A stretch of 40,869 nucleotides of DNA from a virus (lineage: Duplodnaviria > Heunggongvirae > Uroviricota > Caudoviricetes), in IMG/VR virus record IMGVR_UViG_2541047754_000003, one strand, 5' to 3'. Below the pieces are notes generated by a model. The model was not told the DNA's origin, searched no databases, and saw only the letters and a list, made by a program, of their open reading frames with translations. A program made the translations under genes and the position numbers. How positions within the stretch are numbered: the stretch's first letter is position 1; each line of letters opens with the position of its first letter. Below are positions 3,317 to 34,898 of the stretch, piece by piece.

Positions 3317-6073
3317 TTAGCTACTTTCAAGCATTGCAAGACGTGATTCTATTTTTTCGATTCTTCTACGCAAATAAGCTGACTCAAGCCATAAACACTG
3401 GTCAGTACGGATACCCCACCTATTTCCAGCCTTGCAAACCAGAGTTCGCTCTTCTGTTTCGTATTCTTCTTCCATCTCAATTTCGACGCCATCCACAACT
3501 TTAGTGATCATCCTTACCGCCATCACTGGCGCGTATTTATCATCCCATTCATCGTAACAGAGAAGGCCAAATCTGGTTCCATCAATCCCATGCGCGAGGA
3601 AAGTGTCTCTCACTTGTTGTGCTATAACACCAAAATGCCAGCGGGCACCATCTCCCTTTTCCCTGACGGCATCAAGCCAGCGAAAAGCTACAATCCTGAT
3701 ATCTCCCCATGCATCCAGAATTGCATCACCTTCATAACCACGAGACATATACAAGCTGAGCTCACTTGTACTAATCGGTTCACTTTTTTCTCTACCATCT
3801 GATGTGTTTATCGAACCGTTCGCAGAATAAACCTGTGCCCATCTAAATGATGGTGCACCAAGAGATTTGCTGTTATCAATAATTGGTGAAAAATTACCTT
3901 TAATGGCAATATTTCCAGAGTCGCCGAATATATTAATAACTGCAGAGTCATCACCATGGTTTTTTACGCTTAAGTTTCTTGATGAAATATTTATATCTTT
4001 GTTATATCCACTAACATTAATCCATCTTTTACCATCAATGTGATACCCGTAAATATTTCCGTCTGATTGTTCGTCAGGTGACTCTCTAAGAACAATAGCA
4101 TCTGCTCCAGACGACCATTGTATTTTTGTATCTGTAGGCCTCCAGTTCTTTATAATGAACGAACCATCAGTAAACTCCGTTTTTATTTGTCTATTGTCTA
4201 CAAATGCGTCTCTTGGTTTAAACTCACTTGTGTTAACGCTGCTCTGAAGATCAGAAGCAAAAAATCTAAGATTTCCTGTATAACCCTGAGTCTCGGTCTG
4301 GTTATACGCAATCATAATTCCATTTTCAAACTCAGATGATGTTATTTTAACATCACGGCAATCACCAAAAATGCAATTTCCTTTATCAAATGTTGTTTGA
4401 GCTTTGAATTTATCAAACCTTAAATTACGAACAGGGAAACCATCAACCTCTAATGCAAAGGATGCAGGAAGGCCAAAGTATTCTGATGGCTTACCTGATG
4501 TATGATCAAGAGTAGTGGCTACTGTATTCTCAAAAACAGTCCCGCTAAAATTATTACCAATTGACGGAAACCTGATTACACTTATTGTACCTTGTATTTC
4601 AGGAGAAATACCAGATAGTGTGATGTTAGCTCCATCAAATGATGCATCTGAATACGTATATACTGATTCACTGCCAGCAATTTTAAACTGTTTAACTGAA
4701 GTTATTCTCATCGACTTTTTATGTTTAAATGTCACTGAGCTTTCAGTATTACTTACAAGATCAATCTGAGGGCTATTCCTTATCGCGATCCCTGACTGGA
4801 CATAAACGTTATTAAAGTGCGTTTTTTCAGGATTTCCCTTCATTGAAAGGCTCCCGTCATTTTCTGTCAGTAGTAGTCCTTTTACCCTCCAATAGCCGAC
4901 AATCTGTACGTTATCAATAACTGAATCACAGCTATCGTATACATGCAACCCTATATCCCAGTTATCACCCAATGAATAAGAATCAGGGTTATTGTATCCT
5001 TCAATACCATTTTTACTTACCATTATTCTCAGATTGCGTAACTGTGATGCCCTGTTGATACTAACAGCTACGCTCATGGCTTTTGGTGTAGCAGGAGTAA
5101 CACCTACAGAATCTTCATTTGTAAACTCAGTGAACTTACAAGATATCCCTTCAACAATTTTAACTGGTCTTTCATTAGAGATGTTAAAAAAATATTTGTT
5201 TTTTTCTCCATCACCAGTAAATACAAGATGGGTTCCTTTACTCCAACTTTTTAATAATCTTTCAGGCGCTGGTCTATATGTATCCCAGTAATCAATTCCA
5301 TCACCAATTAATGAAACTCCAGGAGGCACATCTATATTCTTAGAAATCATCCATTTACCTGCAGGTATTCTAACGACACTTGCACCAGAATTTATCGCAT
5401 TAATTAACCATTCAGACGCATCAACTTCAAAATTTAATGCAGCATATCTTTGCTCAAACGGAACAAAATCAAGAGCGTTAACGTTATCCCGCATCTTATC
5501 CTGGAACGTTCGGTATACTGCTCCAGAACCATACTGAATAAACCAACCAAAACCACCAATAACTCCGGCGATTGCAGCATCGACATAATTACGCATTGAG
5601 CGATTATTTACAGCGTCCTGCTCAAGTGATGGATCAGCAAGGTTAGATATTCTGTTTTGCTTTGCATCGTAATATTTTGCAAGCAAAGATGGTTTCATCA
5701 ATGCACGTCTGAACCACCCAAAACATTGCTGGATCAGCATCGTCAGGTAGTCAAAAGCATCTTCATGCACTTCGGGGAAAAATTTACCCTGATTGCGAAG
5801 GTCTGTCTCCTGCACTACATCAAGCACACGATCTATCGTAATTCGCCATCCAGCAGCAAGCGGAGACGGAAGAACAACAGAACCGCCACTATAAGTGCCC
5901 GCCCCAGTTACCGTATAACCGGTATCCAGAACCAATTCTGTTACGTTCCCGTTCAGGTCAGACACCTGAACAACCAGGTCGGATTTTTTGAAAATACGGA
6001 AGGTATACGGAAATGATGTCGTAGCGCCGTTACCAGTGTATTCGTTGTGGTCAACTTCGGTTGAGACCGTCAT
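3317..6073 (-). CDS. Tailspike: conserved podovirus N-terminal anchor domain, central beta-helix-like enzymatic domain, C-terminal self-cleaving intramolecular chaperone (peptidase S74-like)
   Basis: 918 aa; N-terminus MTVSTEVDHNEYTGNG...; Gly/Asn/Ser-rich repeats typical of beta-helix depolymerases; C-terminal motif S-D-G-R-E-K (Ser/Lys dyad spacing). Confidence 0.85.
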   Translation of the reverse strand: MTVSTEVDHNEYTGNGATTSFPYTFRIFKKSDLVVQVSDLNGNVTELVLDTGYTVTGAGTYSGGSVVLPSPLAAGWRITIDRVLDVVQETDLRNQGKFFPEVHEDAFDYLTMLIQQCFGWFRRALMKPSLLAKYYDAKQNRISNLADPSLEQDAVNNRSMRNYVDAAIAGVIGGFGWFIQYGSGAVYRTFQDKMRDNVNALDFVPFEQRYAALNFEVDASEWLINAINSGASVVRIPAGKWMISKNIDVPPGVSLIGDGIDYWDTYRPAPERLLKSWSKGTHLVFTGDGEKNKYFFNISNERPVKIVEGISCKFTEFTNEDSVGVTPATPKAMSVAVSINRASQLRNLRIMVSKNGIEGYNNPDSYSLGDNWDIGLHVYDSCDSVIDNVQIVGYWRVKGLLLTENDGSLSMKGNPEKTHFNNVYVQSGIAIRNSPQIDLVSNTESSVTFKHKKSMRITSVKQFKIAGSESVYTYSDASFDGANITLSGISPEIQGTISVIRFPSIGNNFSGTVFENTVATTLDHTSGKPSEYFGLPASFALEVDGFPVRNLRFDKFKAQTTFDKGNCIFGDCRDVKITSSEFENGIMIAYNQTETQGYTGNLRFFASDLQSSVNTSEFKPRDAFVDNRQIKTEFTDGSFIIKNWRPTDTKIQWSSGADAIVLRESPDEQSDGNIYGYHIDGKRWINVSGYNKDINISSRNLSVKNHGDDSAVINIFGDSGNIAIKGNFSPIIDNSKSLGAPSFRWAQVYSANGSINTSDGREKSEPISTSELSLYMSRGYEGDAILDAWGDIRIVAFRWLDAVREKGDGARWHFGVIAQQVRDTFLAHGIDGTRFGLLCYDEWDDKYAPVMAVRMITKVVDGVEIEMEEEYETEERTLVCKAGNRWGIRTDQCLWLESAYLRRRIEKIESRLAMLESS

Positions 6074-6177: not shown

Positions 6178-6192
6178 TTACCTTTCAGGTGA
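6178..6192. promoter_or_regulatory. Operator-like palindrome TTACC-N5-GGTGA (one mismatch to TTACC-N5-GGTAA)
   Basis: Sequence TTACCTTTCAGGTGA upstream of the LexA-box gene. Confidence 0.45.
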
Positions 6193-6229
6193 TTTGCAAA
6201 ACGTGCTGGATAGCAAACAAATTATTTGA

Positions 6230-6249
6230 TACTGTATATTTATACAGTT
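6230..6249. promoter_or_regulatory. LexA (SOS) box
   Basis: TACTGTATATTTATACAGTT, 18/20 match to consensus TACTGTATATATATACAGTA with perfect CTGT-N8-ACAG core, about 20 bp upstream of start codon at 6269. Confidence 0.7.
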
Positions 6250-6268
6250 ATTGCATGGAGAAGATAAG

Positions 6269-6526
6269 ATGCAGCAGTATCACTATCCACTGGAAGACGG
6301 ATTTACCGAAAGGATTCACACGCCGGGAGGCGTCAGGTCACTGGTGGAGGGATCGCACTTGATGAAATTACTCCGGGATCTCGATAAGGATGGATTTAAT
6401 GTCGATGGCCCACTTGCCGAACTGACTGCACTGATTAACTACGTCACCAGCTCACAGATGTCTATGCAGGATCTGCAAACACATCTCGACTATTGTGCCG
6501 AACAATTACGAAAACAAACCCGGTAA
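6269..6526 (+). CDS. Small protein homologous to the C-terminal domain of the neighbouring antirepressor; SOS-regulated antirepressor candidate
   Basis: ATG 6269 with GGAG 8 nt upstream; about 45 percent identity by eye to C-terminus of the 7672-8358 product (shared IH.P.GV..L.E.S.LM.LL..L..DG..V.G..AEL...Y...Q.L.DLQTH..Y). Confidence 0.6.
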   Translation: MQQYHYPLEDGFTERIHTPGGVRSLVEGSHLMKLLRDLDKDGFNVDGPLAELTALINYVTSSQMSMQDLQTHLDYCAEQLRKQTR

Positions 6527-6560
6527 ATTTAAAGGCCGCAAGAGCGGCCTATCGTTTCGC
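6525..6560. terminator. Bidirectional intrinsic terminator between convergent genes
   Basis: Hairpin GGCCGC-AAGA-GCGGCC flanked by AAATTTAAA on one side and T-rich tract on the other. Confidence 0.5.
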
Positions 6561-7277
6561 TTTGTGCTCATCCCAGCACGTTTTGCACCATGCCATTAAG
6601 CCGTCCGCATTTTGATTATTAGGGTAAAAGCTGGTTCGTTTTCTGCGGACATTACAAATTGGGCACCACTTCATATGGCGTGTATTCTTTGGGCCATCGA
6701 GACACCTTGCACACCACTTAGTCAATCCATCTGGATTTTTTGACGATTTCCTGAATTTTTCATATGGAAGGTTTATTCTGCATCGCAAGCACTGCTTGCT
6801 ACCACTTGAAACTCTGTTAGCTGATTCTTCTTTTGGCGGCGATGCAGAAGGTATTCTTGCTGGCTCTGATACTGCCTGAGGTGCTTTTTTAGATGACTGA
6901 GACGATATGTCATCACCAGGGAATCTTCCATGATATGCCGGACGCGTTGACACTCCAGGTGGAAGCTCAGCTGTAAACGGCTTTGGCTGAATCAGTTGCC
7001 TCTCTTTTGCTAACTCCTGCTGTTTATAATATGTCTGGATTACCGCACTATCATAAGCAGGAGGTGCGGAAATATTAGGCGCATTACCTCCAGTTTTTTG
7101 AAACTGAGTAGAGGTGTGTTCTATCACCTGTGTACGATTAATCGTTATCTCCCCATCTTCGGTCTTTATCGTTTTGTTATGATTAACGACCGTACGATCA
7201 GAGATCTTAGTCTTGTTCTGGTTGATAACGTAAATAATCACCGCAACCACACCAACAACTATCCAGAAAACTTCCAT
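6549..7277 (-). CDS. Membrane-anchored protein with two C-terminal Cys4 zinc-ribbon modules; function unknown
   Basis: ATG 7277 with GAGGA RBS; N-terminal TM helix; Pro/Ser-rich linker; two C-x2-C...W-C-x2-C modules. Confidence 0.6.
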   Translation of the reverse strand: MEVFWIVVGVVAVIIYVINQNKTKISDRTVVNHNKTIKTEDGEITINRTQVIEHTSTQFQKTGGNAPNISAPPAYDSAVIQTYYKQQELAKERQLIQPKPFTAELPPGVSTRPAYHGRFPGDDISSQSSKKAPQAVSEPARIPSASPPKEESANRVSSGSKQCLRCRINLPYEKFRKSSKNPDGLTKWCARCLDGPKNTRHMKWCPICNVRRKRTSFYPNNQNADGLMAWCKTCWDEHKAKR

Positions 7278-7297
7278 TGCTTTTCCTCACAATAACA

Positions 7298-7312
7298 TTA
7301 CCTTAAAGGTAA
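7298..7312. promoter_or_regulatory. Operator palindrome TTACC-N5-GGTAA
   Basis: TTACCTTAAAGGTAA, perfect arms, between divergent genes 6549-7277 and ant. Confidence 0.6.
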
Positions 7313-7361
7313 TATCTTGCTTTCAGGTGATCAAGCGTTAAACGCAATCAACCAAATACGG

Positions 7362-7405
7362 TTGATTTTAATATTTCTTCGCGTTTATCATTACCTTTGC
7401 GGTAA
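7362..7405 (+). promoter_or_regulatory. Putative ant promoter (-35 TTGATT, -10 TATCAT) overlapped by operator TTACCTTTGCGGTAA (7391-7405)
   Basis: Sigma70-like hexamers with 18-bp spacer; perfect operator palindrome overlapping -10/+1. Confidence 0.5.
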
Positions 7406-7496
7406 ATTTACATCGCACTCCTCTTGTGCCATAGTAATCGGGCACTGGATTTTGCCAGTGCCGGGATTGGCGTCCCGGGTTACTACAGAGGCACAT

Positions 7497-7518
7497 ATGC
7501 CGCATAAGCGGTTTTTTT
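7497..7518 (+). terminator. Weak intrinsic terminator or attenuator in the ant leader
   Basis: Short GC stem (GCCGC/GCGGT) with loop ATAA followed by seven T; preceded by two stable hairpins at 7442-7478. Confidence 0.35.
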
Positions 7519-7671
7519 ATGTGTAAAGCGCACCTATTCTATGGTGGGCTGTGTGGGGGCACCGAAAGGTGCGCCGGGTCCTTTGTAGCCGGTTACGCCA
7601 ACCCTGCACAGTTCACCACCAACCGATTGGCGTCGGTAGTGGTGATTAACCTAACTACAAAGGTGATCACT

Positions 7672-8358
7672 ATGACTGCTAACGTAACCCCATCTGTTTT
7701 TCATTTTGAATCAGAGGCAACCATTCGAGCCATTGTTATTGATGGAAATCCTTGGTTTGTTGCCAAAGACGTTATTAAAGCTCTTCAACTGACAAACCCC
7801 ACTATGTCAATAAAATCTCTTGATGATGATGAAAGGGCTAAATTTAACTTAGGCCGTCAAGGCGAAACCAATATTATCAACGAGTCAGGCCTCTACACAC
7901 TGATCCTCCGCTGCCGCGATGCGGTGACACCAGGCACTATCCCCTACCGCTTTCGTAAATGGGTTACAGGTGAGGTTCTTCCTCAGATCCGCCGCACCGG
8001 AAGTTACATTAAAAACTCGCTCCCGCAGGAAGAACGCATAAAGATGGTTGCCGACCAGGTAGCCAACGCCACGGCGTCAGCAGTAATGCAGGCGATGAAG
8101 ATAGAGAACAAAACCTACAGTGCCCCGCTGAAGCCCGGCTACCGCAGCCTGATTCACTCGCCGTCTGGTGTTCTCGGCCTGACGGAGAACTCACTGCTGA
8201 TGAATCTGCTGAACCAGTTACAGGAAGACGGGCACGACGTATCGGGCGCGGCGGCAGAGCTGACCACCATGTTCTGCTACATCGTCGGTGTGAGCAAATG
8301 CCTGCGTGATATCCAGACGCACGCGGAGTACATCAACGACAAAGCAGGATTCTTCTGA
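7672..8358 (+). CDS. ant: Antirepressor (BRO-N-like N-terminal domain plus Ant C-terminal domain)
   Basis: ATG 7672 with AAGGTGA RBS; N-terminal FHFESEATIRAIVIDGNPWFVAKDVIKAL resembles BRO-N antirepressor domain; upstream part of ORF-track ORF is structured leader. Confidence 0.8.
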   Translation: MTANVTPSVFHFESEATIRAIVIDGNPWFVAKDVIKALQLTNPTMSIKSLDDDERAKFNLGRQGETNIINESGLYTLILRCRDAVTPGTIPYRFRKWVTGEVLPQIRRTGSYIKNSLPQEERIKMVADQVANATASAVMQAMKIENKTYSAPLKPGYRSLIHSPSGVLGLTENSLLMNLLNQLQEDGHDVSGAAAELTTMFCYIVGVSKCLRDIQTHAEYINDKAGFF

Positions 8359-8431: not shown

Positions 8432-8446
8432 TTACCTCAAGGGTAA
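8432..8446. promoter_or_regulatory. Operator palindrome TTACC-N5-GGTAA
   Basis: TTACCTCAAGGGTAA about 60 bp upstream of the 8507 ORF. Confidence 0.6.
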
Positions 8447-8506: not shown

Positions 8507-8686
8507 ATGCGAAACGAAAAATTGCAGATGCGTAGAGCGCAAGCTGCCGCAAGACGTTCTTTCAATGGAAGCGTAGAGTGCGTAAAAGTTACTATGACAA
8601 AAGATCACGCAAGTCGCGTATCCCGCGCTTTCTTTGATTCTCGTAACAATAAGGAAAATTATGAGTTCGTCTGCGTCGCAGAATGA
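8507..8686 (+). CDS. Small ORF (59 aa) overlapping the next gene; candidate antitoxin or partner protein
   Basis: ATG 8507 with GAGGT RBS 6 nt upstream; 26-nt overlap with the 8661 gene; one codon below the ORF-track length cutoff. Confidence 0.4.
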   Translation: MRNEKLQMRRAQAAARRSFNGSVECVKVTMTKDHASRVSRAFFDSRNNKENYEFVCVAE

Positions 8687-9206
8687 TAAAAATCAAATTG
8701 TCAGATATAAGGGTCGAGTATTGCATACGCAAAATTTCTCGGCCCTTTGTGCATCTGATCTTGAGCTGAAGAAAGTATCTGATGCCTTTACCCAGTATTG
8801 GAAAACGGGATACCATCCATCTCTTGGTAAAGATGCTGCATTTGCTCGTCCGACAGAAATGCTTAAACTAAATGTCAGGCATACTCATGTCGATAACCAA
8901 GACTATATTCCAGAAGATAGTGATAAAAAACACACTGGTAAAAAATCATCTTGGGATGCATGGAAAAATATAGCGTCTGTGCAAGTAAAATGCATACCAA
9001 CAAGTGATTGCTTTTTAGTTTATTCGGTAAATCACAATCGTGATGCGCTGGTTATGTTTTTTGTTGACGCAGATGCCCACAACATAACTGAGCAAGAAGA
9101 GTTTAAAGAGGCAGCAATCACTATCAGTTATCAATTCTTTGAGAAAACAAAAACAGAACCAATGCCTTTAGAAGAAGATCTTTTTTCTGATAAATGGAAG
9201 GAATAA
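8661..9206 (+). CDS. Hypothetical protein with YafO-toxin-like motifs (possible ribosome-dependent mRNA interferase)
   Basis: ATG 8661 with AAGGA RBS; motifs D-F-x-Y-W-K-x-G-x-P..GKDA, H-T-H-V and D-C-F-L-V-Y recalled as similar to YafO; not confirmed by search. Confidence 0.5.
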   Translation: MSSSASQNDKNQIVRYKGRVLHTQNFSALCASDLELKKVSDAFTQYWKTGYHPSLGKDAAFARPTEMLKLNVRHTHVDNQDYIPEDSDKKHTGKKSSWDAWKNIASVQVKCIPTSDCFLVYSVNHNRDALVMFFVDADAHNITEQEEFKEAAITISYQFFEKTKTEPMPLEEDLFSDKWKE

Positions 9207-25874: not shown

Positions 25875-25951
25875 GTGGCATTAGCTCAGTTGGACAGAGC
25901 AACCGCCTTCTAAGCGGTTGGTCGCAGGTTCGAATCCTGCATGCCACGCCA
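25875..25951 (+). tRNA. tRNA-Arg (anticodon TCT), phage-encoded
   Basis: 77 nt; 7-bp acceptor stem GTGGCAT/ATGCCAC, D-arm TAGCTCAGTTGGACAGAGCA, anticodon loop CTTCTAA, T-arm GGTTCGAATCC, 3-prime GCCA; acceptor stem differs from E. coli argU as I recall it. Confidence 0.9.
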
Positions 25952-34835: not shown

Positions 34836-34898
34836 TCACCCATAAGGTAACAAAAATCAAGGATAGTTACCTATGAGGTGCATTTACCTGTTGGGTAA
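34836..34898. promoter_or_regulatory. Tripartite operator (OR-like) between cro-like and repressor genes
   Basis: TCACCCATAAGGTAA (34836-34850), TTACCTATGAGGTGC (34867-34881), TTACCTGTTGGGTAA (34884-34898); first site lies between candidate -35/-10 of the leftward promoter. Confidence 0.7.

Follow-up and report, generated by a model that had tools for sequence, protein, structure and literature searches.

The 40,869-nucleotide (nt) viral DNA analysed here (IMG/VR record IMGVR_UViG_2541047754_000003), referred to as the window, is an epsilon15/phiV10-like (Uetakevirus) prophage of Escherichia coli and carries, directly behind a LexA (SOS) box, a small gene of 85 amino acids (aa) named ant. In all likelihood this gene belongs to the same SOS switch as the one described for Salmonella phage SPC32H, in which the antirepressor Ant acts on the repressor Rep, and it is adjoined by a separately acquired, RNA-gated cassette encoding a larger antirepressor with a Bro-N domain. 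A preliminary description of the region had proposed that SOS induction runs through a LexA-controlled antirepressor. This proposal is supported at the sequence level, Ant being 88% identical to SPC32H Ant and Rep being a homologue of its SPC32H counterpart and of the non-cleavable type. The coordinates given in that description were all found to be correct, and those of the features discussed below are collected in Table 1.

The window can be assigned to a Uetakevirus prophage residing in E. coli because it shares 95% nucleotide identity with Escherichia phage TL-2011b and about 93% with phiV10, matches chromosomal segments of two E. coli strains at 100% identity and carries an integrase gene at its right end. 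The gene order tail spike (-), ant (+), virion genes (-) is common to SPC32H, epsilon15 and phiV10, and ant of the window, located between the tail spike/fibre gene and the virion-protein operon, was found in this same Uetakevirus position.

The 85-aa protein aligns through residues 2-84 with residues 3-85 of chain E of PDB entry 5D50, the 'Anti-repressor protein' (phmmer E 4.1e-47), and a tblastn comparison found it to be 88% identical, and of the same length, to the SPC32H product of the gene annotated ant. By these comparisons it is the orthologue of SPC32H Ant. The protein is a member of phrog_450, labelled 'unknown function', and no Pfam or NCBIfam model matches it. A GGAG Shine-Dalgarno sequence is present at 6257-6260, and the G+C-rich hairpin that follows the gene is probably a bidirectional terminator, which would make ant monocistronic.

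The LexA box reported in the preliminary description was borne out, with 18 of 20 positions in agreement with the E. coli consensus, and so was its location just upstream of the 85-aa gene, at 20 nt from the ATG at 6269 and 157 nt from the start of the divergent tail-fibre gene. It is the sole site with three or fewer mismatches from the consensus in the whole 40.9-kb window, while shuffled sequences give an expectation of 0.00. Five CTGT-N8-ACAG cores are present in the window (0.52 expected), among which only the one at 6230-6249 combines an all-A/T spacer with a gene start just downstream, the spacers of the other four containing G+C. The box is found at the same position in phiV10, TL-2011b, SPC32H, epsilon15, Tyrion and BUCT554, and with one mismatch in Klebsiella relatives. 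In parallel, the -35-like CTGGATAG and the -10 element TACTGT, which forms the first 6 nt of the box, are kept in all aligned E. coli, Salmonella and Enterobacter relatives, and the Shine-Dalgarno sequence of ant is conserved across the same relatives as the box. A putative ant promoter (P_ant) is placed at 6207-6235 on the basis of this conservation and of the layout of p95 in phage 186, in whose annotation the -10 TACTGT is likewise the first six bases of a near-identical LexA box. The records of SPC32N and SPC32H differ in the box by one base, a C-to-A change in the ACAG half-site, and the window keeps an intact box in register. SPC32N is said, in an abstract of Kim and Ryu from 2013, to be a variant in which a single change of the LexA site renders Ant constitutive, and the base difference between the two records agrees with these genetics.

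The presumed target of Ant matches the SPC32H Rep chain (5D50_A) with an E value of 4e-42. As had been anticipated, this repressor is devoid of a LexA-like self-cleavage domain: only HTH_3 matches are found in Pfam, no Peptidase_S24 domain is found in Pfam or NCBIfam, and the C-terminal half is an HTH_3-like domain homologous to PDB entry 5D4Z. Identity to SPC32H Rep amounts to 42% overall, with 52% in the N-terminal and 38% in the C-terminal domain.

When one mismatch is allowed, a palindrome of 15 bp, TTACC-N5-GGTAA, is present at 15 sites in the window (0.6 expected) and at 18 sites in SPC32H (0.5 expected), which corresponds to an enrichment of at least 25-fold in both. In both genomes the palindromes cluster on the two sides of rep and occupy most intergenic regions; in the window, rep is flanked by the copies starting at 34836, 34884, 35596 and 35658. 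At the early promoter downstream of rep the palindrome begins at the final base of the -10 element (AATCAT-TACC, 35653-35672), and the divergent cro-side promoter has a copy between its -35 and -10 elements. The depositors of the epsilon15 GenBank record annotated these palindromes as 'repressor (lysogeny)' binding sites. Because of their enrichment, position and annotation, the palindromes are very probably the operators of Rep (and Cro), and their spread suggests that Rep directly silences many promoters, those preceding the terminase and head genes among them.

In a lysogen, the box over the -10 element of P_ant would be occupied by host LexA, and the monocistronic ant gene would be silenced. 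Upon DNA damage, LexA would cleave itself and Ant would be made, bind the non-cleavable Rep and remove it from its operators, leading to lytic growth. The tetrameric Ant of SPC32H is reported to break up the Rep tetramer (PMC9638917), and LexA-controlled Ant has been described in a review of Salmonella prophages (PMC7380047). In addition, a microcin that damages DNA was reported to induce phiV10-species prophages 21- to 47-fold (bioRxiv 10.64898/2026.05.26.727859).

Several points weigh against this reading. LexA binding and Ant-Rep binding are carried over from SPC32H; what the sequence of the window shows is the orthology of Ant and Rep, the conserved box, promoter and gene order, and a Rep devoid of a cleavage domain. 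Rep is only 42% identical to its SPC32H counterpart while Ant is 88% identical, and a retained Ant-Rep contact is assumed by analogy; either Ant contacts a small conserved surface or rep alleles were exchanged while ant stayed. Moreover, the -35 and -10 elements of P_ant were not called by a consensus promoter scanner. Finally, the operator-like palindrome of the tail-fibre/ant intergenic region lies 15 bp upstream of the ant -35, its position is invariant in seven Uetakeviruses, and its counterpart in the epsilon15 record is labelled 'repressor (lysogeny)'. This site may serve the divergent tail-fibre promoter or modulate ant, in which second case Rep would influence the gene in addition to LexA.

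The second antirepressor gene of the region encodes a 228-aa protein with a Bro-N domain (Pfam PF02498, E 5.2e-20, aa 18-104, nt 7723-7983) and an Ant-like C-terminal domain (aa 147-224, nt 8110-8343) that by itself matches 5D50_E at E 1e-13. The claim that the small protein aligns along its length with the C-terminus of this larger one held in a pairwise BLASTP alignment, in which residues 2-79 of the small Ant pair with 147-224 of the 228-aa protein with 31 identities in 78 positions (40%), no gaps and an E value of 8e-16. The 228-aa protein is 82% identical overall to ORF4 (open reading frame 4) of phage vB_EcoP_ZX5, and the two do not differ from about residue 70 onward; the gene of ZX5 ORF4 is preceded by the same isrK/C4 leader as the one described below. 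Overexpression of ZX5 ORF4 was reported to lower lysogens from 1e9 to 1e6, i.e. about 1000-fold, and the repressor transcript by 75% (PMC9782041). The same study treats the Bro-N protein as the sole antirepressor, with no mention of LexA, SPC32H or the small Ant (PMC9782041), and the small Ant of ZX5 is annotated as a hypothetical protein. Because of the effect of ZX5 ORF4 overexpression and of the domain homology, the Bro-N protein of the window probably acts on Rep as well.

The preliminary description had placed this full-length gene under the prophage operator. That part is plausible, as two perfect palindromes lie in the promoter region (7298-7312 and 7391-7405). No LexA site was found upstream of the gene or in its leader when one was looked for. 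The dominant control elements, an isrK small RNA (sRNA) and a C4 antisense RNA, were missed by that description. The second palindrome starts at the last base of TATCAT (7386-7391) and ends 1 nt before TTTACA (7407-7412); the ATCAT-TACC junction thus formed at 7391 recurs at the early promoter downstream of rep. In phiV10, TL-2011b, Tyrion and Klebsiella phage ST512-KPC3phi13.3, too, isrK is preceded by an exact palindrome at a distance of about 36 bp.

Both RNAs score above the Rfam gathering scores (Table 1), isrK ends in an intrinsic terminator (7499-7518), and the minimum-free-energy fold of C4 reproduces the family structure. The 11-nt loop of C4 contains CCUUUGUAG (7580-7588), of which CUACAAAGG (7655-7663), overlapping the Shine-Dalgarno sequence of the Bro-N ant gene, is the exact complement. 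In the same way, CUACAGAGG (7483-7491) in the single-stranded part of isrK pairs with the C4 loop through one G-U. In ZX5 and phiV10 the loop is one base shorter (CCUUUUAG) and both targets are deprived of the complementary base (CUAAAAGG), and Tyrion has the same loop and target version as the window. This three-way compensatory change is strong evidence for functional loop-target pairings, and according to Rfam the isrK/C4 arrangement recurs in five relatives, namely phiV10, TL-2011b, Tyrion, ZX5 and a Klebsiella phage. Whole-molecule duplex energies were weakly better than those of shuffled sequences (27/500 for C4 with the ant initiation region, 7/500 for C4 with isrK), in a method that unfolds the RNAs, so the useful evidence lies in the 9-nt loop-target match and its covariation. 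An ORF from ATG 7519 overlaps C4 and runs in frame into the Bro-N ant gene (279 aa), which makes an N-terminally extended product possible, while ZX5 is annotated with a separate 37-codon ORF ending 5 nt before ant. The 7519-7671 part would correspond to the 'ash family' ORF of ZX5 and to orf45 of Gifsy-1, which, like icd of P1, is a short ORF translationally coupled to the antirepressor gene.

The cassette, from about 7290 to 8358, consists of a promoter flanked by two Rep-type operators, isrK with its terminator, C4 and the Bro-N protein. Most likely, synthesis of the Bro-N protein would be prevented in the lysogen jointly by Rep, acting at the operators, and by C4 RNA, acting at the ribosome-binding site. 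Removal of Rep by LexA-dependent Ant, or infection of a Rep-free cell, would allow the isrK promoter to fire; isrK would titrate C4, and the Bro-N::Ant protein would be made. With its Ant-like domain it would then target Rep, and it would serve either as a second stage that reinforces the derepression or as an anti-immunity function acting in trans. This second tier, the action of the Bro-N cassette on Rep, is what we infer for the window. More broadly, it may tentatively be proposed that Uetakevirus prophages of E. coli, Enterobacter and some Klebsiella hold a two-input antirepression circuit made of two homologous Rep-binding modules. The free Ant may be governed by LexA and DNA damage, and the Ant fused to Bro-N, AntA or ORF6N by Rep operators and the isrK/C4 switch. 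The second input would report the immunity state and possibly SOS-independent cues, since IsrK of Gifsy-1 increases in stationary phase and at low Mg2+. If so, the second module would supply positive feedback or commitment, would allow induction without SOS, or would induce related prophages in trans.

In the phage collection searched, the small Ant was found in 35 records, Rep in 36 Uetakevirus-type records and the Ant-like C-terminal domain in 34; these three sets are essentially the same Uetakevirus-type genomes, and neither form of Ant was seen in phages of another type. A word-indexed protein search with the small Ant returned stand-alone forms only, so that the fused forms had to be retrieved with the C-terminal domain as query. 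The fused cassette lies directly 3' of ant in the E. coli phages, Tyrion and some Klebsiella phages, one of the latter having a truncated Bro-N part. The fused Ant-like domain is carried by at least three to four N-terminal scaffolds, including two divergent Bro-N alleles, AntA (P0121, P0152) and an ORF6N-annotated protein, and in P0122 it is joined to another N-terminus. The isrK/C4 leader is also widespread among phages devoid of the Ant-like domain, Stx and APSE phages included. Small and fused Ant of one genome share 36-40% identity, and the two subfamilies align with no gaps and with shared residues along the whole domain (Y4, P7, H17, P19, G21, S29, L35, D41, G42, V45, E51, Y58 and H72). 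Among 5,426 complete E. coli genomes, the LexA box together with ant is present in 529 (about 10%), where RefSeq always names the product 'hypothetical protein', and the Ant-like C-terminal domain is present in 470.

Some further forms of the domain were met in this survey. Versions of about 95 aa of the fused subtype were considered as a second free Ant, and this was rejected for P0131, which is a 5'-truncated remnant of a fused gene. P0131 (95 aa, L014-L016 8001-8288, Klebsiella/Raoultella-type contigs) consists of a truncated Ant-like domain followed by an operator palindrome; an AlpA-like gene closely precedes it, and it lies on the margin of a P4-like or satellite-like island (primase-DUF927, SSB). 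It could be an antirepressor carried by a satellite and directed against a helper of Uetakevirus type, much as P4 epsilon acts on P2. In the E. coli contigs L011 (8001-8490) and L012, a Uetakevirus-like prophage has the Ant-like domain fused to AntA (PF08346). This gene is found at the end of the early-left operon and not beside the tail fibre gene, and it is preceded by a match to the Rfam family sRNA-Xcc1 (L011 7870-7959) and not by isrK/C4. Finally, the 'anti-immunity protein' p23 of phiV10 (L001 3890-4572) is frameshifted, and the annotated 29-aa p22 is its out-of-frame remainder.

The proposed action of the Bro-N protein on Rep has to be weighed against several observations. AlphaFold2 modelled the 228-aa protein from a 21-sequence alignment with a predicted local distance difference test (pLDDT) score of about 75-88 in the Bro-N domain but of about 55-70, i.e. 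low confidence, in the Ant-like domain, probably because the latter is an obligate oligomer. A Foldseek search of this model against the PDB gave nothing at E <= 0.001 and did not return 5D50. This result is uninformative, and the homology of the Ant-like domain to Ant therefore rests on sequence. The ZX5 experiment was a crude overexpression of a glutathione S-transferase fusion (PMC9782041). Moreover, SPC32H, epsilon15, BUCT554 and BUCT711 have the small Ant only and lack the cassette, which is thus dispensable, and the phiV10 frameshift falls within the Ant-like domain, so that phiV10 probably has no functional second antirepressor. The domain might also serve oligomerisation only.

This last thought belongs to a wider alternative, in which the Ant-like domain of the Bro-N protein is not aimed at the resident Rep but is a tetramerisation module, or is tuned to the Rep of heteroimmune relatives; the protein might in that case be an anti-immunity weapon against other prophages or have a role unrelated to induction. 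In favour of this, the domain shares only 40% identity with the small Ant of the same genome, the cassette can be dispensed with and has decayed in phiV10, and, by analogy, the Ant proteins of P22 and P1 act in trans on infection. In the same way, antirepressors of Gifsy and Fels prophages cross-talk between prophages (PMC7380047), and SPC32H Ant is tetrameric (PMC9638917), so that the conservation may partly reflect self-assembly. On the contrary, every genome of the phage collection in which the domain was found also has a gene for an SPC32H-type Rep, and the residues conserved in both subfamilies span the whole of it. Moreover, the near-identical ZX5 ORF4, when overexpressed in cells infected with its own phage, cut both lysogeny and rep transcription, and the specificity of the small Ant itself seems broad, since across genera it is paired with Rep proteins of only 42% identity. 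An Ant-like domain directed elsewhere than at the resident Rep thus appears unlikely.

The origin of the two forms bears on the term 'stand-alone paralog' used for the small gene in the preliminary description, a framing that is probably reversed: all 35 phage records contain the small Ant, and the fused form is an accessory of mosaic build that has decayed in some phages. If the Bro-N antirepressor were primary or ancestral, the 85-aa gene would be a derived duplicate of its C-terminal module put under LexA. The two genes are only 1.1 kb apart, their alignment extends over the whole small protein, and the small Ants of BUCT711, P0113 and P0115 share DGHDVSGAAAEL with the fused subtype, suggesting exchange. 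The small Ant is, however, the sole Ant in the four phages devoid of the cassette, the 36-40% identity within a genome argues against a recent duplication, and the presence of the fused domain on several scaffolds, together with a generic isrK/C4 leader, points to capture by a mobile cassette. Primacy of the fused form is therefore improbable and local duplication is the less likely route. The most economical reading is that the small Ant belongs to the core of the genus, and that the fused form arose when an RNA-gated antirepressor cassette of a generic kind took up an Ant-type module, which now forms its target-recognition end. If the two-input circuit outlined above exists, the Ant domain would be a mobile 'warhead' able to recombine onto generic cassettes of this sort and even into satellite-like islands.

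That the LexA-like palindrome is fortuitous, or regulates the tail-fibre gene whose promoter must also fit in the 195-bp divergent intergenic region, is hardly credible, since the box is much closer to ant than to the tail-fibre start, is the only consensus-like site of the window, stays in register with ant across genera while the tail-fibre/spike genes differ, and is the place of the mutation that separates SPC32N from SPC32H.

The LexA-Ant-Rep mechanism is already known for this phage genus, and the window copy is the orthologue of a published and crystallised system. The switch of the window and that of SPC32H (Kim and Ryu 2013, J Virol 87:11775; Kim et al. 2016, PNAS 113:E2480; PDB 5D50, 5D4Z) have in common the length of Ant and 88% of its sequence, the position of the box over the promoter, the gene order, a two-domain Rep homologue devoid of S24 and the clustering of TTACC-N5-GGTAA palindromes around rep. 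They differ in host, which is E. coli for the window, in the low identity of Rep, and in that SPC32H lacks both a cassette similar to isrK/C4/Bro-N::Ant and the probable 242-aa moron that the window carries.

The precedents invoked in the preliminary description, 186 Tum and the Gifsy prophages, hold as functional analogies, whereas a sequence relation to Tum does not. Phage 186 is similar in that a non-cleavable repressor is inactivated by a LexA-controlled antirepressor (Tum/p95), but it is a P2-like myovirus with another repressor family, and Tum is a 146-aa protein with a DinI-like C-terminus. Homology to Tum was rejected, as BLASTP gave an E value of 0.061 over 46 residues with gaps. The isrK-orf45-anrP region of Gifsy-1 resembles the cassette through isrK with its own terminator, a structured C4-like segment and an antirepressor gene whose translation depends, in the window presumably, on RNA-RNA pairing. 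In Gifsy-1, the C4-like segment is STnc1160, overlapping orf45, and the short IsrK acts in trans on the read-through transcript and permits AnrP translation (Hershko-Shalev et al. 2016, PMC4825925). Unlike in Gifsy-1, the protein of the window ends in an SPC32H-Ant-like domain, its promoter is flanked by Uetakevirus Rep operators, and the ORF from ATG 7519 is in frame with ant, whereas Gifsy-1 has a separate 45-codon ORF.

The immI region of P1 and P7 (c4 RNA-icd-ant) and the corresponding region of P22 (mnt-arc-sar-ant) are also second immunity regions in which an antirepressor is silenced by an antisense RNA in the lysogen. In P1/P7, c4 RNA blocks the ribosome-binding region ahead of ant, and the antirepressor region of P22 adjoins the tail spike gene, as the cassette of the window adjoins the tail spike/fibre gene. 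The likeness extends to an RNA loop that pairs with a ribosome-binding region and to matching loop and target changes between phages. By contrast, the Ant-like C-terminal domain of the window appears unrelated to P1 and P22 Ant as far as tested, and its control combines Rep operators with RNA. The account of ZX5 differs in that ORF4 is treated as the sole antirepressor and the small Ant is left hypothetical (Li et al. 2022, PMC9782041).

In the literature searched, no description was found of the homology that links the free, SOS-controlled Ant to the C-terminal part of the RNA-gated Bro-N protein, or of the possible two-input circuit. For the switch itself, the main value of the present analysis lies in annotation and context, the LexA-boxed gene being 'hypothetical' in about 10% of complete E. 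coli genomes. The ZX5 work is the only experimental study found on the lysis-lysogeny regulators of an E. coli member, and the small Ant was overlooked in it. The Ant homology offers a first concrete, testable hint as to the region through which such Bro-N proteins contact the repressor, and it suggests that C-terminal domains set the target specificity in the Bro-N, AntA and ORF6N 'antirepressor' families, which are large and little understood. Should the two Ant modules indeed answer to different inputs, these prophages, common in gut E. coli, would offer a compact model for the combination of SOS and RNA-based immunity control.

Table 1. Positions of the genes, RNAs and control sites discussed, counted from the first letter of the window
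Feature	Position	Strand	Description
Tail-fibre gene	3317-6073	-	divergent from ant across a 195-bp intergenic region
Operator-like palindrome TTACCTTTCAGGTGA	6178-6192		1 mismatch to TTACC-N5-GGTAA; tail-fibre/ant intergenic region
Putative ant promoter	6207-6235	+	-35 TGGATA 6207-6212, 17-nt spacer, -10 TACTGT 6230-6235
LexA (SOS) box TACTGTATATTTATACAGTT	6230-6249		18/20 to E. coli consensus TACTGTATATATATACAGTA
ant, 85-aa small antirepressor	6269-6526	+	ATG 6269, TAA 6524-6526; SPC32H Ant orthologue by sequence
G+C-rich hairpin	6533-6550		between ant (+) and 242-aa gene (-); called on minus strand
Perfect operator palindrome TTACCTTAAAGGTAA	7298-7312		upstream of isrK/ant promoter region; also in TL-2011b
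Perfect operator palindrome TTACCTTTGCGGTAA	7391-7405		between -10-like TATCAT and -35-like TTTACA
isrK-family sRNA	7442-7518	+	Rfam RF01394, 56.7 bits (gathering score 50)
C4 antisense RNA (P1 c4 / P4 CI family)	7537-7623	+	RF01695, 79.5 bits (gathering score 45)
228-aa antirepressor	7672-8358	+	Bro-N domain, helical linker, Ant-like C-terminal domain
Perfect operator palindrome	8432-8446		downstream of Bro-N ant; same arrangement in TL-2011b and loci L014-L016
rep, 194-aa prophage repressor	34954-35538	+	SPC32H Rep homologue, presumed Ant target
TTACC-N5-GGTAA palindromes (15)	starts 2949, 6178, 7298, 7391, 8432, 25538, 28731, 28749, 32491, 32553, 34499, 34836, 34884, 35596, 35658		window-wide scan

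Other genes of the window deserve a brief mention. Between ant and the Bro-N cassette, and convergent with ant, lies an ORF of 242 aa (6549-7277, -) with a hydrophobic N-terminal segment and Zn-ribbon-like repeats at its C-terminus; it belongs to phrog_6762 and has weak Stc1 and endonuclease VII-like matches. In TL-2011b the region is given merely as a misc_feature, and it is missing in phiV10, ZX5, Tyrion and SPC32H; the gene is probably a moron. On the 3' side of the Bro-N ant gene, an ORF of 190 aa (8634-9206, +), with the operator palindrome 8432-8446 upstream, belongs to phrog_1651 of unknown function and has a borderline Pfam match to the YafO toxin (25.8 bits, cutoff 25). Finally, a tRNA gene at 25875-25948 (+; Rfam 73.3 bits) has the anticodon loop CUUCUAA and is probably a tRNA-Arg(UCU), and a tRNA-Arg is annotated at the corresponding place in the SPC32H record.

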